A stretch of DNA of 64,000 bases, from assembly GCA_029856045.1 (NCBI GenBank), contig JAHQWG010000033.1:77885-141884 (forward strand), read 5' to 3'. Below, one piece after another: positions 8,542-21,058 of the stretch. The DNA comes from Promethearchaeia archaeon (GTDB taxonomy: Archaea > Asgardarchaeota > Lokiarchaeia > Sigyniarchaeales > SOKP01). The notes beneath the pieces were generated by a model that saw only the letters and a list, made by a program, of their open reading frames with translations, had not been told where the DNA came from and did no database searches. A program made the position numbers and the translations under genes. Position 1 is the stretch's first letter. Each line of letters begins with the position of its first letter.

Positions 8542-8898
8542 TTAATAAAATTGAGTTCGCAACTTAGAAATCAAAAGACCCTTATCCAATACTTGAATAC
8601 CATTGTTTTTTCCAAATTTTTCTGAAAATTCACTAGATTTACTACAAATCATAACTCCCCCCTCAATATCATCAATATCATTGCAAGCTTTATTTAATTG
8701 ACGAATCTGAGTTATTGAGATTTCTCGTTTCCAATCTCGAATAAAGACTCCAAATTTTCCGTTGTCTAATATTAATGCGTCAAATTTCCAAACTTTTCCT
8801 GATTTACCTCGAAATGTTTTTTCTTCATCTATATATCGATAATTCGCAGAAAATAAAATTTTTGCTAATTCTCGCAGGTTTTTATCTTTTAAATCCAA
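8542..8898 (-). CDS. Mrr-like restriction-endonuclease-fold protein, probably degenerate
   Basis: GKSGKVWKFD...FIRDW...ISITQIRQL...F...GIQVLD. Confidence 0.7.
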   Translation of the reverse strand: MDLKDKNLRELAKILFSANYRYIDEEKTFRGKSGKVWKFDALILDNGKFGVFIRDWKREISITQIRQLNKACNDIDDIEGGVMICSKSSEFSEKFGKNNGIQVLDKGLLISKLRTQFY

Positions 8899-9036
8899 TT
8901 CACATGCACATTTTTTTTCTTTTTTAGCGAAATATTGAGATGGTATCTAAATCTAGTTTATTTTTAAAAAATATTTAACATAATATAATATTGAGAAAGT
9001 ATATCAATTTTTGTCGGATTTCCATTTTTTATTAAT

Positions 9037-9246
9037 TTAATCTAACTTGATTAATGAATCATCTCTGATATTTGAATCAATTTCTTTCGAATAATTTTTA
9101 AAAATTTCATCAAAATTTTTTACTAAATTATTTGCTAAGACTTCACATCTATTAGAGAATTCAATTTTTTCTATATCTGTTTCTCGATATCTTTCGATTG
9201 ATAGTATTTTTGCTAATTCTCTCAGATTTTTTTCATTTATATCCAA
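9037..9246 (-). CDS. Small protein sharing its N-terminus with the adjacent Mrr-like protein
   Basis: MDINEKNLRELAKIL versus MDLKDKNLRELAKIL. Confidence 0.6.
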   Translation of the reverse strand: MDINEKNLRELAKILSIERYRETDIEKIEFSNRCEVLANNLVKNFDEIFKNYSKEIDSNIRDDSLIKLD

Positions 9247-9353
9247 TTAAATTTCACAACTTTTAATTTCAATTTGTTAAATATTATTAGTATAGTATCT
9301 AAATCTACATCTGTGGGATATTTAATACATTGTGATATCTGCGGAATATCCTT

Positions 9354-10202
9354 CTAAAAAAAAGCACTAATTTTTATTAGAGGATAATCTCCTTTATTAG
9401 GACCAAATTTTTCTAAATATAAATCCAAGATGCTTTTAAAAAAGTTTATTATATTAATCGCAACTACTTCACAAATATTGTTACAATCAAAGTAATTATC
9501 TAGAAGCAAAGGACATCTTGGATTAAATTTTTTACAATATTTTTTCATTTGGAGTGAAAATCCTTCTGCTTGAAGTGTTTCAAAATAATTCCATGAGTCT
9601 TTGAATCCAGCAAACTCACAAGGCTTTATTTCTTGAAGTCTCTCTTCTAAAGATTTTTTATTGAATTTGAATTTTAAACGGTGTTTTATTTTTTTCAATT
9701 CAATAGCAAATTCTGCTTGACTCCAATTACTATACATCTGGAGTAAAGCTTCAGCTTTTATAACCTTTTCAGGTGAAATTATTCTCCAACCATCTGCTCT
9801 TTTACATTTAATATTTTTATTTTCAAAATTATCAAAATTAGTCGGATATATCCAACACTGAGGAGGTTTAAGACCTGTGGAATGGAGTTTACATCCATTT
9901 ATCTTTTTATCATAGAATGAGCACTTTGCTGTTTTGTCATCAATCCTTATTTGAAATGAAAAAACATCTCCTCTAATAAAATCTTTTTCTTTACCTAATC
10001 TTTGTCTTATAATTTCTTCAGCTAATATTTTTGGGACATCGATAAATATAGAGCAGCAATCAGCATGGCAAATATTTGGGTTTGTACAATCAGGACCTGT
10101 TATTCCCTCTTTCATTAATTTATTGTAATTCCTGATAATTTCTAATATATCCTTTTCAAGGATATTTTGATTTTCTTCTCTATTCAGTTCATTTACTTTC
10201 AA
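9354..10202 (-). CDS. YkgJ-like Cys-cluster (Fe-S/Zn) protein
   Basis: C...CHADCC, CSFY...C..H...KPPQCWIYP. Confidence 0.75.
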   Translation of the reverse strand: MKVNELNREENQNILEKDILEIIRNYNKLMKEGITGPDCTNPNICHADCCSIFIDVPKILAEEIIRQRLGKEKDFIRGDVFSFQIRIDDKTAKCSFYDKKINGCKLHSTGLKPPQCWIYPTNFDNFENKNIKCKRADGWRIISPEKVIKAEALLQMYSNWSQAEFAIELKKIKHRLKFKFNKKSLEERLQEIKPCEFAGFKDSWNYFETLQAEGFSLQMKKYCKKFNPRCPLLLDNYFDCNNICEVVAINIINFFKSILDLYLEKFGPNKGDYPLIKISAFF

Positions 10203-10438: not shown

Positions 10439-12601
10439 ATGAGTGATACAGAATTTAAAAAAAATTTATTAATTGTAATTGATATAACCGAAAAAGAAAA
10501 TACTATTCTCAACGATTTAGGAAATATTAAAGAAATAAGTGGAAACGGAAAATTAATTATAAAAAATCCGTCTGATAAAAGTCGATTGTGGAACATTACA
10601 TGTGATCTAAAAGAAACGGTAAAAACTTCATTTTCTGCACGTGAAATAAAAATAGATACTCTAGACCCGTTAAAGGATTTTTCTTCCAATTATACAATTT
10701 CTAACATAAAAGAACCTCTTTTAACAGTTACTGAAAAATTCGATACTTTATCAGATTTTTCAGATCGAGAAAATAACACGTTTTTATTTGCTCAAGATAC
10801 TAAATGTCAGTTAAAACTCCATTTAACAAATCAAATAAGTGGAGATATTATCAATATTAAACTTATTAAAGAGATTCCTCCTATACTTAAAGATATTGAG
10901 CTCGTTCCACCTAATAATGGAACAGCTTCAATGAAAGAAGAAGAAGGTTCGAATAAAATATTTTGGGAATTAAACTCTTTAGGTGTTGGTCAATCGGCTG
11001 AATTAGTAGTAAATTGTATTGGATTAGCAAATTCCGTAGAAATGCAACCACTTGGAGAAATAAGTGCTACATATCTAGTAAACAATAGAATATTAACAAT
11101 GATTGATCCAGATATAGTTGCAATAACAGATTCGATGAGTGGAGTAACAAGGGATGAAGGTAGCAAACCAGGGGTATGGGATTGTAATGTTGAATTCATT
11201 AATGAATCTGAATTTCAAGTAAAGTTAAATGATGTAAGAGTAGAACATAATATTATTACTGGGAAAGAAATTGTAGTATCCCAAGCACCCGGAAAGATTT
11301 TAAACAGAGACCAAGCATGGGATTATGATTTCATTGTTGAATCTAAAGAAGTCCCTCAATTAGAACCAACTTTCGAATTCACTACTTTATTTACAGTGAT
11401 AAAACGAGTTGAGGGAACTATATATAAAGAACCATTATATTATCCCGTACTTCGGGCAGAAGTTTCAAAAGATATTAAACCAAATGAGGTAGGAGCTTAT
11501 GCAAATACTGATATGGAAATCTTTAACACTATTTTTAATAAAGGATCAGCTCCAATCGATAAATTACTGATTACAGATGAAATAAACGAAGATTTTGAAC
11601 CTCCAGACCTGAATAAAATTAAACTCTTTGCAAAAACTGGTGGGGAATTAAAAGGAATTTTCGGTAATGAATATGTTAAGGTATTTCAAATTACCCCGGA
11701 TAATAAGGACTTGACAAAATCTCATAGAATAGAAATTGAACTATTTAATATGGCAAATGACTTATCATCAGATAGTACTTTAGAAATTTCTTATCCAATA
11801 ATTGCTCGAAATCCAAAACCTGATAAATCGTATCAAATTCCAATTACTGTTCAGTTAAATACGAAAATTGAAGGAAAACCCTATATTATTGGCCCAAGTG
11901 AAACACCGGAAATAAGAATTAAATATATTGCTAGAAAATTTAAGACTCTTAAAAGTATTAAGCCAGGTAGTGCAGCGGGGGAGTTTATTGTAAGTATTCG
12001 ACTCCAAAATCAAGGAAATGTTGAATTAGAAAATATTCTATTTAAGGATAAAATTCCAGTCAATTTTGAATTGATAAGCTTTTCTCCAATGGAATTGAAA
12101 TATGAGTTAAATAAGATTGAAAATGAATCTGAATTAGTTGTAAGAATTATAGAGTTAAAAGCTGATACTGTATTGAAGATCGAATATCAATGTTCTGGTA
12201 TTGGTGAATACCCACGACATGAACCAGTAGTTATTGTTGAAGGAAGGAAAGACGTCATTTCTCAGCCTGAAGAAAATGTAGAACCAACTGTAAGTAGAAC
12301 ACCCGAATCATCAATAAGTTCCTTTGCAGAAAACATATCATTCTCAATTAAATCACAAATTATTGATGAGATTATTAATCTTGAGAAAAAAATTACCCCT
12401 GGATTAAAATCAGTGGATGTTGCCAATATGATTGAATATATGAGAGATCTTATTGCTAACATTGCGAGAGTTGGTCCCTTTATTCATGAAATTGGACAAA
12501 TTGCAAAAGAGTTTAAAGATCTAGGAGAAAAAACCGTTGTTGGTGAATCTCACGATAAAATTACCAAAAAAATCAAAGAATGGAAAGCTAAATTTTCATA
12601 A
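10439..12601 (+). CDS. Large cytoplasmic beta-sandwich protein (adaptin-mu/Ig-like repeats) with a C-terminal helical Vps28-CTD-like domain
   Basis: Repeated strand motifs (GKLIIKN, IFWELNSL, IFNKGS...ITDEI, LQNQGN...KDKIP); no signal peptide; C-terminal ~85-aa helical domain. Confidence 0.6.
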   Translation: MSDTEFKKNLLIVIDITEKENTILNDLGNIKEISGNGKLIIKNPSDKSRLWNITCDLKETVKTSFSAREIKIDTLDPLKDFSSNYTISNIKEPLLTVTEKFDTLSDFSDRENNTFLFAQDTKCQLKLHLTNQISGDIINIKLIKEIPPILKDIELVPPNNGTASMKEEEGSNKIFWELNSLGVGQSAELVVNCIGLANSVEMQPLGEISATYLVNNRILTMIDPDIVAITDSMSGVTRDEGSKPGVWDCNVEFINESEFQVKLNDVRVEHNIITGKEIVVSQAPGKILNRDQAWDYDFIVESKEVPQLEPTFEFTTLFTVIKRVEGTIYKEPLYYPVLRAEVSKDIKPNEVGAYANTDMEIFNTIFNKGSAPIDKLLITDEINEDFEPPDLNKIKLFAKTGGELKGIFGNEYVKVFQITPDNKDLTKSHRIEIELFNMANDLSSDSTLEISYPIIARNPKPDKSYQIPITVQLNTKIEGKPYIIGPSETPEIRIKYIARKFKTLKSIKPGSAAGEFIVSIRLQNQGNVELENILFKDKIPVNFELISFSPMELKYELNKIENESELVVRIIELKADTVLKIEYQCSGIGEYPRHEPVVIVEGRKDVISQPEENVEPTVSRTPESSISSFAENISFSIKSQIIDEIINLEKKITPGLKSVDVANMIEYMRDLIANIARVGPFIHEIGQIAKEFKDLGEKTVVGESHDKITKKIKEWKAKFS

Positions 12602-12676
12602 AAATCTAATTTTTATATATATCTTTTTTTATTATTAATTGAAATGAAGTTATAGAAAGCACAGATTTATTGCTTT

Positions 12677-13810
12677 TTACTCATCATCTGCTTTTGGAAT
12701 TTTGGGAAGTATCCTTCCAGAAACTTTAATTGTTTTAGGTTTAGTTTGATTATCTTTAGTTGTTCCTAAAGTGTCTTTCTTTGCACTCGATGTCTTAGAT
12801 ATGACCTTTTTAGCTGTTTTTTTTGTAGGTGTTTTTTTACTTATCGTTTTAGTGGATATTTTTTTAGCTGGCGTTCTAGAGGTTGTTTTTTTTACCGGAG
12901 TTCTAGTTGATGTTTTATTATTTCTTATTGGAGTCTTTTTATCTAATGTTAATACTTCAATCCCTTTTATTATAGCACGTTCCTCATCAATATAAACCTT
13001 TATCTTATTATTTTCTAGGTCAATTATTCCACTAGGAAATTTTTTAATTCTTTCCCATTCTATATCCTCAACTTCCTCTCCAAGAACAGTAGTTATCTTA
13101 GAGACCGCTCCATATAAATAGTTCCCCATTATGATATTTTGCCGTTTATATCCAGCTGGAATTTCATTTTTTAAAATTTCATTCAAAATTCTTTTAACTT
13201 GATCTTGAGAAAAAGATGATTTTTTAGTAGTGTATCCAGGACTTATACTTGATGGAGTTATTGGAATAGGTTTAGAAGTTACTTTTTCATTTACTTGAGG
13301 TTTAAAAACAGGAGATACTAGAGTAGATTCCATAGCATTCCCATTAAAACTACCTAAAGCTGGGGAATAATAATCTGTACTTTCTACTTTCTTCGAAACC
13401 GGATCTGCATCCAGAATTATCCCTTGAATCTTACCATCTCTTTCTATATTTCTAATATATCTCATATCTGGTAATCTTTCAGTTACTTCCATCGATTCTA
13501 GACCAAACACATTCAAAAATTCGACCAATTCATCGCCTTGATCGATTGATTTTATTATACATCGATGAAATCCTGCTGATTTTATTAATTCATTTTGCAG
13601 TTCTTGGGCAACTCGTGAAGATATGAATCTCTTCCGAACTGGAGACTTAGAACCTTTCCAAATAAAAATTCTCCTTAGATCTTCCCTAACTATCACAAAT
13701 ACCTGATTAGGATCTAAAATTGATCCTAATTCTTCAGAAGATATATTCAGTTCATTTCTATTTCCATCATCTAATAATTCAAAAGCCATAAATTCCTTGT
13801 ATTCAGTCAT
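12677..13810 (-). CDS. Gelsolin-domain protein with Lys/Thr-rich tail
   Basis: ILDPNQVFVI...IFIWKGSKSPVRKRFIS...IDQGDELVEFL matches the gelsolin fold signature. Confidence 0.8.
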   Translation of the reverse strand: MTEYKEFMAFELLDDGNRNELNISSEELGSILDPNQVFVIVREDLRRIFIWKGSKSPVRKRFISSRVAQELQNELIKSAGFHRCIIKSIDQGDELVEFLNVFGLESMEVTERLPDMRYIRNIERDGKIQGIILDADPVSKKVESTDYYSPALGSFNGNAMESTLVSPVFKPQVNEKVTSKPIPITPSSISPGYTTKKSSFSQDQVKRILNEILKNEIPAGYKRQNIIMGNYLYGAVSKITTVLGEEVEDIEWERIKKFPSGIIDLENNKIKVYIDEERAIIKGIEVLTLDKKTPIRNNKTSTRTPVKKTTSRTPAKKISTKTISKKTPTKKTAKKVISKTSSAKKDTLGTTKDNQTKPKTIKVSGRILPKIPKADDE

Positions 13811-14159
13811 TATTCTTCTTTATACTTGTCTCAAATTAAAAGCAATTTTCTCTATAACCTTTAGATAAAAGCTCTCTTATTTGAATATTTTTATTTTTAA
13901 TTTTGTCTAAATCTACAAAAACTAATATATTCATATAATATCTATATATATTTTTATCCATCTTCATGTTTTAGATTAATACTATAGGATAATTATGATC
14001 TAATCGAAAATAATTCTATAACGACCATTAAACTCTCGTCTAGCAACCAAATTATCTTAATTTAATCAAAAATATTAATACAAATTTAACAATAATTATA
14101 TAAATCTTTATTCTCATATTGTTATTAAATTAAATTAATCAATTTCATTATTAAAAGGT

Positions 14160-14852
14160 TTGAATAAAATGGGAGTAAATTTTTGCCCAAGTTGTGGTGA
14201 TCCTTTACAACCTGGTCAGAAGTTCTGTGAAAAATGCGGTGCTAAAATTGATGACTCTGCACCAGTACCTTCTCAAACTAAAAGTGCTACCAGCCCCGTT
14301 CGAAGTGGTGGAATCTTTGATATTAACAGAAACTACTATGTCTTGAAAGAGAAATACTGGGATTGGGGGTCTGGCGATATTCTTGATGAAAAGGGGCAAC
14401 CCATCGGGAGAATGCATCGAAAAATAATTTCACTTAGAAGGAAAGTTGAGCTTATGGAATTGGATGGTACTATCCAAGCAACAATTCATGCTAAGATTGT
14501 TAGTGCAAGAGGATCTCAAGATTTGAAAGATCCAGAGGGAAATATGATCGCTAGAATCAAAAAATCAATAACTAGTGTTTTTCGCCCTAAATTTTACTTA
14601 GAATCTCCTGATGGAGATAAATGGTATGAAGCTCAAGGTAAATTCATGGGTTGGTCCTACAAAGTCACAAATTTTAAAACTGGTGAGTTAGTTGCAGAAA
14701 TCGAGAAAGCTGATCGGTGGAGGGATGTTTTTTTGGGTGGTATGTTCGATTTTAAGGACACATACGCCTTACGGATTCATGATAATAAAACTGATAGGCG
14801 TATTTTAGTGGGGTTTGTTCTTTCAATTGATAATGTCTTGCATGATAAATAA
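14160..14852 (+). CDS. Zinc-ribbon plus LURP-one/scramblase (Tubby-C-like) protein
   Basis: FCPSCG...FCEKCG; LKEKYWDWGSGDILDEKG...IA.IKK...DTYALRI...LVGFVLSID. Confidence 0.82.
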   Translation: MNKMGVNFCPSCGDPLQPGQKFCEKCGAKIDDSAPVPSQTKSATSPVRSGGIFDINRNYYVLKEKYWDWGSGDILDEKGQPIGRMHRKIISLRRKVELMELDGTIQATIHAKIVSARGSQDLKDPEGNMIARIKKSITSVFRPKFYLESPDGDKWYEAQGKFMGWSYKVTNFKTGELVAEIEKADRWRDVFLGGMFDFKDTYALRIHDNKTDRRILVGFVLSIDNVLHDK

Positions 14853-15035
14853 TATTTAATTCTTTTTTTTTCTTAACTTCTTTTTTCAAAAATAGTGATA
14901 AAAATGATATCATTTTTAGGAACCCTATTTAACTAGTACAATTTATTCAAACCTAAAGTAATTATTGAAAGATATTTTATTTTAATTAAGAAGATATTTA
15001 TATAAATAAGTAGAAATAATAATAGGTTTTTTACA

Positions 15036-15824
15036 ATGAGTATGATTCGTCTCTTAAAATTAAAGGATTACATCACTCTTTCAGGGACAATTTGTGGGAT
15101 TTTTGCTTTAATGATTGGAATTATAATTAAAGATTTAGCTTTGGGATTTTTTTTAATTATGATTTGTCAAGGGACAGATCTGTTAGATGGATATGTAGCA
15201 AGAAAATTAAATCAAAAAAATGAAATTGGAAAAGAAATAGATTCATTAAATGATTTATTTTGTTTTGGAGTTGTTCCTGCAATGTTAATTTTTATTAACT
15301 ATTGTGATGATTTGCCCTTTGAATTAATTTTTTACATTCCAGCGATCATTATATTCATTTTGTGTGCTCTACTTAGATTAGCAAGATTTAATATTATGGA
15401 TGCAAAGGGATATACAGGGATAGTAACTCCTTTATCCGGTTTAATGGTGACCTTCTTTTATTATATAGATTATTTTAGTATTCAAACTTTTGAAGAAAAT
15501 AATTTTATTTCAATTTGGGTTCAATTACTATTTCCATTTTTATTAGGATTTTTGGGTTACTTAAATATTACTACTTTTATTATATATGGTGAAGAGATAA
15601 AGAAAAAGTCTGGTAACTTAAAATATGTCTTTATTATCGGAGGCATTCTCACAATCGTAATCGGTATAATTGGACTAACTTTTCCAAAACAGTTGGCGGC
15701 TCTACCTTTACTTATTATATTTATAGGATCTTTTGTATTAGGATGGTTTTATATTTTTATTGGTTTTAAAAATTATTTAAATTCAAGAAAGAATATTAAA
15801 AAGGAACTTAATTCAACTAACTAA
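15036..15824 (+). CDS. CDP-alcohol phosphatidyltransferase (PssA/archaetidylserine-synthase-like)
   Basis: DLLDGYVAR...GKEIDSLND...FGVVPA...RLARFN. Confidence 0.9.
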   Translation: MSMIRLLKLKDYITLSGTICGIFALMIGIIIKDLALGFFLIMICQGTDLLDGYVARKLNQKNEIGKEIDSLNDLFCFGVVPAMLIFINYCDDLPFELIFYIPAIIIFILCALLRLARFNIMDAKGYTGIVTPLSGLMVTFFYYIDYFSIQTFEENNFISIWVQLLFPFLLGFLGYLNITTFIIYGEEIKKKSGNLKYVFIIGGILTIVIGIIGLTFPKQLAALPLLIIFIGSFVLGWFYIFIGFKNYLNSRKNIKKELNSTN

Positions 15825-17320
15825 TTTGCCAATCTTTCAATCCAATTTTTAATTCGATTTTTCAGTACTTTTTGTACATCCTCATCAAGCTTTCCTTTAT
15901 TTTTGACATCTGTTATCCAACGGCGTATATCATTTAGTATTACAGAGAAGCCTTTATTTTCAAGAATATAGTCATTTAATTCTTCTAAATGTTTTGCAAT
16001 TACATTTCCATTTTTACTATCTAATTCTTCTGAAATTGCGATAAATCGAGAGCCAATCTCGGTCAATTCTCCCTTTAGAACTCCACTTTTAAGAATTTCA
16101 TCTTTAATGGATTTCAATGGTGCTTTTTCTTTCTTTTCTTCAATGACCTCAATAATTTTTTCCTTTTCTTCAATAAATGTAGAAATTGTATCGATTTCTT
16201 TACCAATTGGCTCTTTCTTCTCAGCAATTTCTCCAGATGGAGGAGGAATTTTTATTTCTTCAGATTTTTTTATGATTTTAATTGGCATTTGTTTTGTTTT
16301 TTCAAACAGAAATTGAAATGCCTGATTATTTTGGTGAATTGGTGAAGACATAAAGTTAAAAACGTTTGCTAATAATTCAAATATTTTTTGGCTAAGAGAT
16401 TCATCAAAAATGGAGAATTTTTCTTCTTCTTTTTCTAAGACCATATTAAAAGTTTTCTCTTGATCACTAATAGTTTGTTCATACTCGTACATTAAATCAA
16501 ATAAACTCATTCGAATCTCATTTTCAATTTTCCCAACTTGAGAAGATATTTCATTAATGTTTTGCTGTAAGATCTCTGAATTTTTTTTAAACACATCAGG
16601 TAATTTTTCATTGAAACTTTCTTTAATTTCATTAATTTTATTATCAATAATTTTATCTACTAATAATTTTATATCTTTCTGCTTTTTTTTAAGGTTAAAT
16701 TCTTCGAGATTTTCCATAATTTCTTGTTTCGTATTCTCGATTTGTTTTACAAAATTTTGAAAATGTAAATTGAAAACGTTCTCTACCATTTTATAAAATT
16801 TACTGGTATTGTTTAATAATAGATTTAATTCAGGGATTAATGAAACTCCATCTTCATAATCCGCTTTTATTAAACTTAAATTTGCTACAATTGTGGTTTT
16901 TGCTTCTTGAAAATTCTTAATATAATTTTTTAAATTTAATAAAAATCCAGATTCTTCTTTAATCTCATTAAAAATTTTGGATATTTTATCAGGTAATTCA
17001 TTGGCCATTTGATTTGATTTAACATCAAATTTCTCATAATAATTTAAAAATGCACGATATGGGGGTATAGCGTAATAATAAGGTGTAATTTCCTCGGAAG
17101 ATTCTGAGTTAGAAATACACAAACCTTTAGTTAAAAGCTCTTCGATTAAACTTTTATTTAATTCTTCATTTGTAGTTTCTGTAATTGATGAGATTTCTTC
17201 CATTGTTAAGGGAGGTCTCCCAATAATTTTTAAATAAAGGTCAAGACTATCATGTGAAAGATCCAATTCATTTAATAATTGAGTTAAAAAATCTTTATCA
17301 TTATTATTTGCCATAATCAA
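15821..17320 (-). CDS. TrmB-like winged helix, long coiled coil and C-terminal Vps28-CTD-like domain (alternative start ATG 17314)
   Basis: LYL...LTMEEIS...IEELLTKGL...YYAIPPY; ~250-aa heptad-rich region; C-terminal helical bundle. Confidence 0.6.
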   Translation of the reverse strand: MIMANNNDKDFLTQLLNELDLSHDSLDLYLKIIGRPPLTMEEISSITETTNEELNKSLIEELLTKGLCISNSESSEEITPYYYAIPPYRAFLNYYEKFDVKSNQMANELPDKISKIFNEIKEESGFLLNLKNYIKNFQEAKTTIVANLSLIKADYEDGVSLIPELNLLLNNTSKFYKMVENVFNLHFQNFVKQIENTKQEIMENLEEFNLKKKQKDIKLLVDKIIDNKINEIKESFNEKLPDVFKKNSEILQQNINEISSQVGKIENEIRMSLFDLMYEYEQTISDQEKTFNMVLEKEEEKFSIFDESLSQKIFELLANVFNFMSSPIHQNNQAFQFLFEKTKQMPIKIIKKSEEIKIPPPSGEIAEKKEPIGKEIDTISTFIEEKEKIIEVIEEKKEKAPLKSIKDEILKSGVLKGELTEIGSRFIAISEELDSKNGNVIAKHLEELNDYILENKGFSVILNDIRRWITDVKNKGKLDEDVQKVLKNRIKNWIERLAN

Positions 17321-17468: not shown

Positions 17469-18602
17469 TTGGTAATAATGGAGATTGATAAGATATCAAT
17501 TGGAACCGAAGCAACTTTCCTTCCACCTTTTGAAAATGGCATTAAGACGGTAAAAAGACTTGAAGAAACCGGATATGCTTCTTTATGGTGGGCAGACCAC
17601 TTAATGGGTTGGATACCCGAATCTATCTGGACTCCAGATATTATTAATGTAGCAGCTTATCAGAAAACACCCCATTTTTTCTTTGAAGCTTATACTACGA
17701 TTGCTGTTGCGGCTTGGAATACCGAAAGAGTAAAATTGGGCACATCTGTTACTGAAACTTTTAGGAGACATCCTGCTGTACTTGCACAGTCCTTTTTAAC
17801 TTTAGATCATCTCTCTAAAGGCAGAGTAATTCTTGGTATCGGAGCTGGTGAAGGTGAAAACGTCATTCCATATGGAATTGAATGGAATAAACCAGTGAGT
17901 AGATTGGAAGAAGCGATTAAAATTATTAAACTTCTTTGGAAAAATGATAAAAAAGTGGATTTCGATGGAAATTTCTGGAAATTAAAAGATGCAATTCTTG
18001 CAATGGGTCCCTATAAAAATGGGGAATATCCTCCAATATGGATTGGGGCACACGGACCTAAAATGCTTGAATTAACAGGAAAATTAGGAGATGGGTGGTT
18101 ACCTGCAAATCTAGATCTCAATTCCTATAAGAAAGGGCTTAAAATTATTCAAGAGTCAGCAAAAAAAGTTGGTAAAAATCTAGACAACTTCACTCCAGCA
18201 TTATGGTGTTACGCAATTTTAGATGAGGATCATGAGGGTTGTTTAAATATGCTTGAAGCTCCATTAATTAAATGTCTTGCGTTAGTTATGTCCCATGAAA
18301 AATTCAATCAATACGGTATTTCACACCCTCTAGGTGAGAATTATAGAGGTCTTTTCGATTTTATCCCCACTAGGGTTGATCGAAAAACAGTGCTAGAAGC
18401 AATTGAGAAAATTCCAAAAAAAATGTGCGAAGATATCTACTTATATGGAACTCCTGATGAAATTATTGGAAAAATAGAAGAGTATGCTAAAGTTGGTCTC
18501 AAACATATAGTAATCCAAAACGCTACTATTTTTTCGGGTGTTAAAGAAATCAAGACTTCATTTAACTGTTTAAAGAAGGTGTTAAACTATTTTAATGGAT
18601 AA
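17469..18602 (+). CDS. LLM-class (luciferase-like, probably F420-dependent) oxidoreductase
   Basis: WWADH, RHPAVLAQ, LDHLSKGRVILGIGAGE, GDGWLP. Confidence 0.92.
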   Translation: MVIMEIDKISIGTEATFLPPFENGIKTVKRLEETGYASLWWADHLMGWIPESIWTPDIINVAAYQKTPHFFFEAYTTIAVAAWNTERVKLGTSVTETFRRHPAVLAQSFLTLDHLSKGRVILGIGAGEGENVIPYGIEWNKPVSRLEEAIKIIKLLWKNDKKVDFDGNFWKLKDAILAMGPYKNGEYPPIWIGAHGPKMLELTGKLGDGWLPANLDLNSYKKGLKIIQESAKKVGKNLDNFTPALWCYAILDEDHEGCLNMLEAPLIKCLALVMSHEKFNQYGISHPLGENYRGLFDFIPTRVDRKTVLEAIEKIPKKMCEDIYLYGTPDEIIGKIEEYAKVGLKHIVIQNATIFSGVKEIKTSFNCLKKVLNYFNG

Positions 18603-18786: not shown

Positions 18787-19536
18787 ATGATTGTCCCCTA
18801 TACTCTCCCGCTTGATTTATTAGAAGTATTTCAAGGAAGTTTTAGTTTGATTTTTGCTATTATTTCAATATTTGTAGGATTACGAATTCTATTTAAATAT
18901 TTTGAATATAAGAGAAGAGAATTAATCCTTGTCGGAATATCATGGATTGGAATAGCGAGTCCTTGGATTCCTGATTCAATTAATTTTATAATGATTTTAG
19001 GCTTTAGTTCTATTCTTACAGAAGAAGCCTATCTCATTATCGGAAATGTTTTTATGCCGTTTTTCATTATTTGCTGGTTAATAGTAATTACCGATTTTTT
19101 GTATAAAGTAAGACAAAAGGTGATACTCATATTATGTCTTATTTGGACTGTAATTTTCGAAATAATTTTTTTTACATTACTCTTTATTGACTCTACATTA
19201 GTTGGAACATTTCTAGGACCATTTCAAGTAGAATTTGGTGATTTTATCACATTTACGTTATTATTTACTATTGTTATATTATTAATAAGTGGCTTATTGT
19301 TTGCTCGAGAATCACTAAAGTCAGAGGATAAAGAAATTAAATTGAAAGGGAAATTTCTCATAGCTGCATTTCTTTCATTCACTATTGGTGCGATTTTAGA
19401 CTCATCAATTTCATTAATACCAATAACTGTAGTAATTACTAGGTTAATTTTAATATCAAGCGCAATTGAATTTTATCTCGGCTTTATCTTACCTAAATGG
19501 GTAAAAAAATTTTTAATTAAGGGATTAAAAAGGTAA
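18787..19536 (+). CDS. Approximately 7-TM membrane protein of unknown function
   Basis: About seven hydrophobic segments; ends FYLGFILPKW. Confidence 0.7.
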   Translation: MIVPYTLPLDLLEVFQGSFSLIFAIISIFVGLRILFKYFEYKRRELILVGISWIGIASPWIPDSINFIMILGFSSILTEEAYLIIGNVFMPFFIICWLIVITDFLYKVRQKVILILCLIWTVIFEIIFFTLLFIDSTLVGTFLGPFQVEFGDFITFTLLFTIVILLISGLLFARESLKSEDKEIKLKGKFLIAAFLSFTIGAILDSSISLIPITVVITRLILISSAIEFYLGFILPKWVKKFLIKGLKR

Positions 19537-19687: not shown

Positions 19688-21058
19688 ATGATAGAACTCC
19701 AAAAAGAAGATTTATTCATTTTTATCGATATAACAACTGATTTCTTAAAAAAAAAGACACTTTTTAAAGGACTTAAAGAATTAATTGATAAAAAGAAACA
19801 ATTCAATATTTTAACAATATTTAATTTGCTGTTATTCAAAGAAGATGCCAATCCTTTATTGATAATGGATAAAACCTCTTATGGAGAGATAATTGATATT
19901 TTATCTGAAAACTGGAGTTATAGAAATAAAACAAGCCTATTTGAGAATGGGATGTTTCTAACTTTATCTGAAATTCTAAAGAAAGCAAAAAAAGGTGTTG
20001 CAAATTATCGTATTATTGTAATTACAGATAGTCCAAGTGAAATCCCCGAAGAAATGCAAGCAACCTTATTTGATCTTATAAGCAAGGTAAAGATTCTTCC
20101 AACATTCATAGATATTGTAAGAGTAGGAGATAAAAAATTCTATGCTGATGATGTAAAACTTAAAATAATTACAATGGAAACTACTGGTGGGATGTTTTAT
20201 GCTGATTCTACTAATTATTTTATGAACATTATGAATATTCTTGCAAAAAATAAACAAATTCAAAATGTTATTGTTGGAGAAATTAAGAAACAGATACAAC
20301 CAGAAGATAAAACATTTTATGAAAAACTAGCTAGTGATTTACTTTCTCCAGAATCTGGAGAAGAATTAACTTGCACAATATGTAATATGCCCATTTGTCC
20401 AATATGTTTAGATAAAAATGATACTCCTCACAAATGTTTTAATTGTAATATTTCCTATCATGAATGCTGCGCTGCCCAATATTCCGCACTTAAAAACATT
20501 GGGCTTATTCATATTTTTAGATGCGCTGGTTGTGGTACTCTATTAAAATTAGAGGAAAATATGGTTCTCGAAAAAGCAAAAAATATTGAACAATTAAAAT
20601 TTATTGAAGAAGATATTGAAACTTTAGAGGAAAAAAGAAGGGAAGCAGTCAAAACTCCGATTCCTTCTAGTTCCGAAGAATTTATCTCAATATCTTCCGA
20701 AACAGAAATTTCAGATGAAAATAAAGCTGATTTTATAATTGTAGACAGTGAAGAGTCAAAAACATTTGAAGATTTAGTACCTTCTCCCCCACCTCCACCA
20801 ACTATCAAGAAAAAGATAAGAATTGGAGGTTTTTTTGGACCTGAAATAGAAATAGAAGAAAAACAACAACAACAACCTCAAAAAGAAATAAAACCGCAAA
20901 AATATTGGTCTCCTACTGGATCAACATCTTCCCAAATTTCTTCTATTACTCAATTAAATCCTCCAAAAACAAAACCTCTATTAAGGTTTTGCAAAATTTG
21001 TGGAGGGCCAATAAAAGGAAATGATAAGGCTTGTAGGTCATGCGGAGCTCCTGTTTAG
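19688..21058 (+). CDS. vWA-like domain, RING/PHD-type zinc finger, Pro-rich linker and zinc ribbon
   Basis: IFIDIT...RIIVITD...IDIVRVG...TGGMFY; CPIC...CFNC...H..C...CAGC; C-terminal CKICG...CRSCG. Confidence 0.72.
   Translation: MIELQKEDLFIFIDITTDFLKKKTLFKGLKELIDKKKQFNILTIFNLLLFKEDANPLLIMDKTSYGEIIDILSENWSYRNKTSLFENGMFLTLSEILKKAKKGVANYRIIVITDSPSEIPEEMQATLFDLISKVKILPTFIDIVRVGDKKFYADDVKLKIITMETTGGMFYADSTNYFMNIMNILAKNKQIQNVIVGEIKKQIQPEDKTFYEKLASDLLSPESGEELTCTICNMPICPICLDKNDTPHKCFNCNISYHECCAAQYSALKNIGLIHIFRCAGCGTLLKLEENMVLEKAKNIEQLKFIEEDIETLEEKRREAVKTPIPSSSEEFISISSETEISDENKADFIIVDSEESKTFEDLVPSPPPPPTIKKKIRIGGFFGPEIEIEEKQQQQPQKEIKPQKYWSPTGSTSSQISSITQLNPPKTKPLLRFCKICGGPIKGNDKACRSCGAPV

Follow-up and report, generated by a model that had tools for sequence, protein, structure and literature searches.

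Do five neighbouring genes in a Lokiarchaeal genome make up one membrane-remodelling machine, or have they come to stand side by side in some other way? The question is raised by a stretch of 64,000 nucleotides (hereafter the window, G000:C32:77885-141884; in our local labels G stands for genome, C for contig, L for locus, g for genus and f for family), which belongs to a genome of 3.34 Mb with a G+C content of ~28% and a completeness rating of 100%; public records label close homologues of the window proteins Promethearchaeota or Lokiarchaeota. [quoted passage not shown] Our answer is that two Lokiarchaeal (Promethearchaeota) neighbourhoods, each conserved on its own, meet at this locus, which is not one five-gene machine, and that its durable core consists of three separately transcribed genes: a gelsolin of predicted 1DGelX type, a protein with a Zn-ribbon and a LURP-one-related (LOR) barrel, and the sole PssA-like enzyme of the genome.

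The five open reading frames (ORFs) lie exactly at the coordinates claimed for them, with the strand pattern +, -, +, +, -. P0001 (10439-12601, +) encodes a protein of 720 amino acids (aa) with Ig-like beta-sandwich repeats and a C-terminal bundle; P0002 (12677-13810, -; 377 aa) is the gelsolin; P0003 (14160-14852, +; 230 aa) has a Zn-ribbon (aa 8-30) and the LOR beta-barrel (aa 74-221); P0004 (15036-15824, +; 262 aa) is the PssA-like CDP-alcohol phosphatidyltransferase; and P0005 (15821-17320, -; 499 aa) combines a winged helix of predicted TrmB type, a long coiled coil, a linker and a four-helix C-terminal bundle. P0001 and P0002 are convergent with a gap of 75 bp, P0002 and P0003 are divergent and 349 bp apart, P0004 follows P0003 after a spacer of 183 bp, and P0004 and P0005 are convergent with an overlap of 4 bp.

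Which of these adjacencies last? The window's arrangement of all five genes recurs in the same genus (G001 and G004, and G002, where the locus is divided between two contigs). The comparison within family f1 covered 18 loci from 12 genera other than the window's own, and there the order of the block is a HEAT/Zn-ribbon gene, gelsolin, LOR, PssA (divergent), a P0005-family gene and one or two genes for proteins with a von Willebrand factor A (vWA) domain and a Zn-finger. None of the 18 loci separates gelsolin, PssA and the P0005-family gene, the last of them tail-to-tail with PssA in every case; LOR stands between gelsolin and PssA in 14 of the 18 and lies elsewhere in the genome in g3, g4 and g7. 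PssA is divergent from both gelsolin and LOR in most genera, and in the window's own genus LOR is inverted, being co-directional with PssA instead of gelsolin, with its position between both unchanged. Beyond the P0005-family gene, a gene of the vWA/Zn-finger type (our family F0) is found in 17/18 loci, usually as two tandem copies.

Across families, g20 has gelsolin, Macro and LOR, followed by a divergent PssA and a P-loop ATPase gene; g14 has the same order, but with Macro in two of three genomes and with an unrelated membrane protein in the place of LOR; and in g21 LOR, Macro and gelsolin are together, with PssA and the ATPase gene ~20 kb off. In f3 the distance from gelsolin to PssA is ~1.4 kb, and in f4 no P0004-type enzyme or LOR barrel was detected with these queries. 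Gelsolin and PssA lie within 3 kb of each other in g14, g20 and f3, and both g20 and g21 preserve the succession LOR-Macro-gelsolin, with unlike flanks otherwise. P0005-family genes are adjacent in one taxonomic family only, their position being taken by the P-loop ATPase gene in sister families. When the flanks of the sister families are mapped on the window's own genome, the surviving adjacencies are two close co-directional pairs and gelsolin-PssA, and because only some adjacencies survive, gelsolin-PssA among them, we read this as selective retention. A conserved neighbourhood of the kind that the earlier note had asked for is hence present for gelsolin, LOR and PssA across genera, and partly across families; it does not extend to P0001, which is limited to the genus, or to P0005, which is limited to the family.

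The Macro-domain (ADP-ribose-binding) gene of the sister families stands between gelsolin and LOR, or between gelsolin and the membrane protein that replaces LOR (L045 4806-5372, L077 6949-7521, L078 7397-7972, L081 2134-2709, and L090); in G039 it adjoins PssA, and the best Macro match of the window's own genome is on contig C31. Family f3 has a distant copy of the vWA/Zn-finger gene near the cluster.

What, then, of P0001 at the other end? Full-length orthologues, at 41-51% identity, are on other contigs in other genera, where a gene of family n0 (~284 aa) adjoins them in 8/8 loci, and one of family n3 is near them in 3/8 (these loci have short flanks). The n0 gene of the window is 9354-10202 (-), which encodes 282 aa with a weak Pfam match to CxxCxxCC; elsewhere its family is the divergent gene that is kept beside P0001 orthologues. 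P0001 thus has its conserved company in both genes on its left, this one and the 118-aa gene beyond it. Since the orthologues of P0001 belong elsewhere to another block, it must be this genus that joined the two blocks, and the 'bracketing' of the core by two Vps28-like proteins, of which the earlier note had spoken, is a local rearrangement. A distant Asgard family (L117, G057:C15, ~11.5-13.4 kb) also encodes a protein like P0001, of 620 aa and matching a P0001 model at E 1e-74, four genes away from the LOR gene of that genome, which may be due to chance.

The assignment of P0002 to the gelsolins holds. Its gelsolin-homology domain (13496-13756, -; aa 19-105) matches 7c2f_B as a single sequence in phmmer (E 1.1e-5), and the family profile matches solved Asgard gelsolins in the Protein Data Bank (PDB): 7c2f_B at 1.2e-6, 7whf_G at 8.9e-5, 7c2h_G at 3.5e-4 and 7whg_G at 9e-4. 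The match to Pfam Gelsolin (E 0.015, 15.6 bits) is under the 21-bit cut-off. The domain is the most conserved block of alignment A3 and is followed by a variable linker, an X domain (aa ~200-290), a basic Lys/Thr-rich tail and a conserved C-terminal motif; the X domain gives 0.1% against the gelsolin-homology domain in hhalign and has no PDB gelsolin match. Judged by its domains, P0002 is thus of the 1DGelX architecture, in which one gelsolin-homology domain is followed by a non-gelsolin X domain. Thor 1DGelX and L. ossiferum B35_GelX (PMC7444086; bioRxiv 10.1101/2025.11.30.690169) likewise have one gelsolin-homology domain, disordered linkers and an X domain; the likeness is at the level of architecture, and the P0002 family differs in its conserved motif R-x-L-P-K-I-P. 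Loki2DGel (PMC9433394), with two gelsolin domains and a Zn domain, is unlike P0002. According to a report cited in bioRxiv 10.1101/2025.11.30.690169, Thor 1DGelX disassembles actin filaments, and the preprint itself finds that other gelsolin-homology proteins co-precipitate with Lokiactin.

Orthologues of P0002 occur throughout the family at 40-51% identity. The R-x-L-P-K-I-P motif (12695-12715, -; aa 366-372) is present in 16 of 19 gelsolin orthologues by regular expression, with a spacing variant in a 17th, and has the form L-K-K-I-P in the sister family. The former conforms to the pattern of class I SH3 ligands (+xΦPxΦP), and the latter recalls the 'LKKV/T' core of WH2; SH3 domains were sought in the genome as readers of the motif and none was found, one of the two controls being uninformative. 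Among the gelsolins of L027, L028, L030, L035 and L037, some have a SAP/HeH-like helix-extension-helix in the tail (…T-V-K-E-L-K…A-K-K-A-E-I-I…) and others a second copy of the X domain.

P0003 had been read as a Zn-ribbon protein of the LURP1/scramblase fold, and indeed both Pfam domains are above cut-off: LOR (PF04525) at 40.0 bits against a cut-off of 24.5, where aa 74-221 cover positions 32-186 of a profile of 187, and Zn_Ribbon_1 with 33 bits. The match to Scramblase (PF03803), at 19.1 bits, is under its cut-off of 25.4 and overlaps the LOR region; by these scores it is a superfamily-level resemblance only. The domain belongs by Pfam cut-off to the LURP-one-related/Tubby/phospholipid scramblase superfamily (PF04525; described in Bateman et al. 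2009, PMC2639001) and differs from eukaryotic LOR, Tubby and scramblase proteins in having an N-terminal Zn-ribbon in place of their N-terminal regions. Scrambling by PLSCR-type proteins is itself disputed (PMC3590573). The true start of P0003 is probably the ATG at 14169. Its orthologues are 62-79% identical within the family and 39-51% in other Asgard families, and LOR is present in 70 of the 151 genomes of the phylum sample. In three genomes, from two genera, a single in-frame stop, TAA or TGA, interrupts the LOR gene (G023:C7:103497-104228 in L027, G013:C95:7693-8403 in L028, and G162:C23:11616-12170); in L027 and L028 it falls between the Zn-ribbon and the barrel and leaves two ORFs. The gene could be split or a pseudogene in these cases, or the stop could stem from an error in sequencing.

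The third member of the core, P0004, is rightly called PssA-like. It scores 59.3 bits against PF01066 (CDP-OH_P_transf; cut-off 22), and pssA (TIGR00473) is its best NCBIfam model, at 97.8 bits, under the cut-off of 107; the archaetidylserine synthase models TIGR04217 and NF038087 give 83.7 and 76.7 bits, with cut-offs of 200 and 240. As no equivalog-level score is reached, its serine specificity is putative and unproven. The catalytic motif D-x2-DG-x2-AR-x8-G-x3-D-x3-D is intact in 21/21 orthologues. The enzyme is thus like PssA and archaetidylserine synthase in its Pfam family, motif and best model, and differs from them in falling below the curated cut-offs and in a C-terminal extension of ~110 aa with extra hydrophobic segments. 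In the phylum sample full-length enzymes of this type were found only in f1 and f2, and among relatives they occur also in f3; across the sampled Asgard genomes none turned up outside the window's own order. P0004 is the only PssA-like CDP-alcohol phosphatidyltransferase of its genome; the other three CDP-OH transferases (C41:93864-94493, C51:270369-271004 and C15:63310-63888) are archaetidylinositol-phosphate-synthase-like. A PS decarboxylase was sought in this genome, rated complete, and none was found, hence a serine lipid, if made, would be an end product. The three paralogues and P0004, together with the undetected decarboxylase, suggest that inositol and serine lipids figure largely among the headgroups.

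How might these three proteins work together? The genes, their domains, the homology and the fold of the two bundles discussed below and the pattern of synteny are directly supported, and every functional link between them we infer. The enzyme would make an anionic lipid with a serine headgroup, to be retained as an end product; the LOR barrel would sit at the cytoplasmic face of the membrane and bind or perturb this lipid; and the gelsolin, with its basic tail and its C-terminal motif, would be recruited to or regulated at the membrane and there sever or cap Lokiactin. The genes would be held together for the sake of co-regulation, P0001 having been brought next to them by a rearrangement in its own genus and P0005 being their neighbour in one family. 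That a real functional tie of this sort exists among gelsolin, LOR and PssA is, in our opinion, a tentative proposition, which we would place a little short of an even call.

The two outer proteins remain to be considered. That P0001 and P0005 share a C-terminal helical domain, as the earlier note had seen, is borne out by profile comparison: the two bundle profiles align in hhalign with 95.2% (E 2.7e-8, 78 columns), and a more diverse profile gives 96.8% (E 2e-10). BLASTP of one C-terminus against the other finds no match, hence this homology is visible to profiles only. In AlphaFold2 (AF2) models the bundle of P0001 (12323-12595, +; aa 629-719) has a per-residue confidence (pLDDT) of ~72-90, and that of P0005 (15824-16117, -; aa 402-499) forms four helices with a pLDDT of 83.8 and a predicted template-modelling (TM) score, pTM, of 0.75. 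Most simply, the shared bundle would let both proteins dock onto the same partner, possibly an ESCRT-II-like one.

Is it a Vps28 C-terminal domain? In the structural libraries this is the best, or joint best, named match of the P0005 bundle in three cases. Foldseek against the PDB puts 2j9w_B, the C-terminal domain of Xenopus Vps28, on top (probability 0.96, TM 0.64, E 0.5), and VIA-align gives Z 10.2 with a root-mean-square deviation (rmsd) of 2.9 A over 83 aligned residues; in a Foldseek-independent scan of 48,161 chains the yeast domain 2j9u_A ranks second (Z 9.6, rmsd 2.4 A, 81 aligned); and in the ESM Atlas the bundle's own archaeal clusters come first, followed, among families with a name, by eukaryotic VPS28 (TM 0.68). 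The bundle resembles the ESCRT-I domain (2j9w, 2j9u; PF03997) in being C-terminal, in its four helices, in its length of ~85 residues and in 14-16% identity. It differs in that P0001 and P0005 are without the N-terminal steadiness-box half of Vps28 and without a significant sequence-profile match to it, in a genome which has a canonical Vps28 on C37.

Several results count against this likeness. The Z scores tie with those of CheA-P1/HPt (histidine phosphotransfer) and designed bundles (9.5-10.0, CheA P1 at 9.8), and at 9.6-10.2 they are below the ~13 that the tool advises for helical bundles. Pfam VPS28 (PF03997) finds in the window's own genome at E<=10 only the canonical protein on C37 and a 789-aa protein on C36, and in 40 relatives at E<=1 no protein of the P0001 or P0005 type; and in 33 proteins, unlike in Vps28, the bundle is repeated in tandem, with 2-5 copies. 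Searches of PDB sequences with the C-terminal domains, by phmmer and hmmsearch, return designed helical proteins only and no Vps28, and hidden Markov models (HMMs) run against all six-frame ORFs of the genome give no cross-match to Vps28, finding one further P0005-type bundle (C16, 746 aa) and two marginal P0001-type matches. In favour of the likeness there is a weak link in hhalign, where the diverse bundle profile reaches 47% (E 1.9e-4) with the C-terminal domain of the Pfam-VPS28-positive 789-aa family; with canonical Vps28 it reaches 8% (E 0.004), aligned onto the C-terminal region. The Vps28 profiles used here were shallow and then enlarged with 120 database homologues, and their positive control (the 789-aa family against Vps28) failed; since the test is without power, we do not count the weak scores against homology. 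Given the ties with generic bundles and the lack of Pfam VPS28 detection, the term 'Vps28-CTD-like' survives as a call at the level of the fold, based on models. Homology of the bundle to the Vps28 C-terminal domain is plausible and seems to us somewhat more probable than the contrary, with membership of the family unproven.

Among 1.84 billion proteins the bundle family makes up 170 clusters (at 50% identity), which is few. Full-length examples of the tandem-bundle proteins (P0126, P0128, P0131, P0134, P0142 and others) are mostly 740-1080 aa long, one of the tandem-bundle proteins having a weak CH-like (MIP-T3) N-terminal match; we saw no mention of such arrays in the ESCRT survey PMC10936438. 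The 789-aa protein (G000:C36:77904-80270, L002) has several winged-helix-like repeats and a C-terminal domain above the Pfam VPS28 cut-off, and is kept across the family at ~60% identity in ORFs of ~790 aa.

As to the remainder of P0001, the beta-sandwich repeats noted earlier are found both in the AF2 model and by Foldseek. Ig-like sandwiches occupy ~120-220, 340-490 and 500-600, ahead of the four-helix C-terminus at 629-719, and residues 1-120 and 222-336 have a pLDDT <50; Foldseek matches are to integrin thigh/calf and antigen I/II Ig-like repeats, and there is a weak DUF11 repeat match. With no signal peptide visible by eye, the protein is predicted to be cytoplasmic. P0005 was read as a winged helix-turn-helix (HTH) coiled-coil protein, and this we can refine through its paralogues. 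P0005 itself scores 17.3 bits against TrmB (PF01978), under the cut-off of 25.6, and the paralogues P0224 (29.0 bits) and P0249 (31.9 bits) pass; the N-terminus of the P0005 family aligns with residues 5-186 of P0249 at 98.1% in hhalign. By this homology to paralogues above the cut-off, the N-terminus of P0005 is assigned as a TrmB-type winged helix. P0005 is a shortened member of its family, of 499 versus ~660 aa, without a middle domain of ~150 aa (alignment A4). The family has 329 matches, all unnamed Promethearchaeota proteins with no Pfam annotation, and 2-7 matches per genome, several of the paralogues lying away from the locus. Profile and Pfam scans of the whole family gave low-complexity coiled-coil noise only, and an ESM Atlas look-up of full P0005 no usable match.

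Asgard multidomain proteins that join Vps28-C to adaptin-appendage, Ig-like and HTH/PCI domains have already been described, and both P0001 and P0005 fit this class as the survey sets it out (Makarova et al. 2024, mBio, PMC10936438): P0001 by its Ig-like/adaptin-appendage-like beta-sandwiches with the bundle, P0005 by HTH, coiled coil and bundle, and both by being Asgard-restricted, diverse in Lokiarchaeia and patchy in distribution. The fit is by architecture, and the bundle of P0001 and P0005 differs from the class so described in escaping Pfam VPS28 detection, in the small size of its family and in the tandem copies that some members have.

Is a functional tie among gelsolin, LOR and PssA really needed, or would descent alone leave such a picture? 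On the latter account the five genes are unrelated neighbours, PssA being a housekeeping enzyme, in a slowly rearranging part of the chromosome, and a number of our own results favour it over the tie that we propose. Within-family synteny is high overall and the conserved block includes a housekeeping aldolase gene; since blocks with housekeeping genes are kept equally well within families, conservation at this distance is weak functional evidence. The genes are separate transcription units and not an operon, given spacers of 150-350 bp and a B recognition element (BRE)/TATA-like element of its own before every gene, P0004 included. The earlier note was right to warn that there is no single operon here and that the co-location could be accidental. 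On C32 a number of genes from the flanks of the sister-family loci are still within ~35 kb, a residual macro-synteny which could account for some of the linkage. In several genera that linkage is gone: the genes are dispersed in g17, and gelsolin and PssA are on different contigs in two genomes (g22/g23); in g14 a 234-aa gene that we considered as a diverged LOR had to be rejected, being a membrane protein without similarity, so that LOR has been replaced there. In other Asgard lineages LOR is in unrelated contexts, none of 20 loci from other Asgard families, outside the order, having it next to gelsolin or a lipid synthase, and it stands among housekeeping genes (in f9, those for PGK, RpiA and a tRNA endonuclease). 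PssA may simply be a housekeeping enzyme. On the other hand, descent alone does not easily account for the tight adjacency of gelsolin with PssA, with LOR or with both at 30-40% identity, where most other flanks have been exchanged, nor for the inverted LOR of the window's own genus still lying between the same two genes. We regard descent alone as possible, though less likely than the tie.

The functional tie among the three core genes has also to be set against readings that give the outer proteins a larger part. The P0005 family could consist of regulators that bind DNA in the manner of TrmB and act on the lipid and actin-regulator genes beside them, in which case the bundle would have nothing to do with ESCRT and would serve for sensing or oligomerisation. 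The TrmB family is itself laid out as winged helix, coiled coil and C-terminal domain, and the TrmB cut-off passed by the paralogues with their homologous N-termini, the tail-to-tail position next to PssA and the structural ties with HPt/CheA-P1 signalling bundles all agree with this; however, by eye the PssA upstream regions share no operator-like palindrome, only the BRE/TATA-like element, the several paralogues in each genome lie away from the locus, and the bundle, joined as it is to Ig-like repeats in P0001 and found in tandem arrays, looks more like a module for contacts between proteins. A regulator of this kind seems to us unlikely. Even less probable, if only slightly, is the full five-gene module, in which two Vps28-C adaptors recruit ESCRT to where gelsolin, scramblase-like protein and PS synthesis remodel the membrane. 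It draws on the bundle common to both outer proteins and Vps28-C-like by its fold, on a P0005 that unites winged helix, coiled coil and Vps28-C-like domain, archaeal ESCRT building blocks according to PMC10936438, and on L117, where even a distant Asgard genome has a P0001-like gene near LOR. Yet the adjacency of P0001 is confined to one genus and that of the P0005 family to one family, the bundle is unmatched by Pfam VPS28, and contig C32 is without an ESCRT-III, EAP30, Vps28 or actin gene, the first three being on C36, C15 and C37 and the actin genes on C27, C23 and C36. EAP30-type proteins are encoded at C36:3113-3778 and C36:40221-40568, ESCRT-III at C36:208-696 and C15:194163-194651, and Lokiactin at C27:401065-402177. 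Of the coupled ESCRT-actin-lipid module of the earlier note, the partly conserved linkage of gelsolin, LOR and PssA is therefore what we keep.

The remaining features of the window can be dealt with briefly. In its 8-22 kb part there is no tRNA, Rfam family or meaningful repeat. Left of P0001 and its n0 neighbour lies a gene for 118 aa (8542-8898, -), and a direct repeat of ~100 nt (8853-8955 and 9201-9307, spacing 348-352 bp, identity 80-83%) covers the start of this ORF and the spacer preceding the 282-aa gene; it is probably a partial duplication. To the right, the F0-family gene (19688-21058, +) encodes 456 aa with a vWA domain, an Ssl1/p44-like zinc finger, a polyproline tract and a C-terminal Zn-ribbon; in the ESM Atlas it matches VWA/Ssl1 clusters both by features and by structure. 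Its zinc finger resembles that of Ssl1/p44 (TFIIH), a run of five prolines lies inside P-S-P-P-P-P-P, and the product is possibly an E3-like or a profilin-binding protein. Between P0005 and this gene are a luciferase-like monooxygenase gene (17469-18602, +; PF00296, E 2e-63) and a gene for a polytopic membrane protein of 249 aa (18787-19536, +); neither was seen there in other genera of the family.

If the linkage of gelsolin, LOR and PssA is inherited synteny only, the locus is ordinary. If it is more, what would it mean? Known Asgard actin regulators, profilins and gelsolins, respond to calcium and phosphoinositides in vitro, and to our knowledge no cellular membrane link is known for them. 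How the Asgard actin cytoskeleton is connected to the membrane is an open question, for which a gelsolin encoded by the side of a lipid-binding candidate and a serine-lipid synthase offers a concrete and cheap hypothesis; our full-text literature searches returned no account of this gene linkage, and no paper in which the gelsolin of Asgard archaea is connected with PS synthesis or with scramblase/LOR genes. The shared bundle in its turn adds a small divergent family, tandem forms included, to the Vps28-C-like modules and bears on the origin of modular ESCRT adaptors. Finally, one may go further and imagine the three genes as a dedicated, co-regulated lipid-actin unit of the Lokiarchaeales, in which GelX, a tubby-fold binder and the sole serine-lipid synthase let anionic patches place the severing or capping of Lokiactin, and which P0005, modelled as a single-chain fusion of ESCRT-I- and ESCRT-II-type building blocks, might tie to membrane scission in one family. 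This is speculation to which we give a low, though real, chance; if true, such a unit would prefigure, in archaea, the control of actin dynamics by phospholipids where membranes are remodelled.

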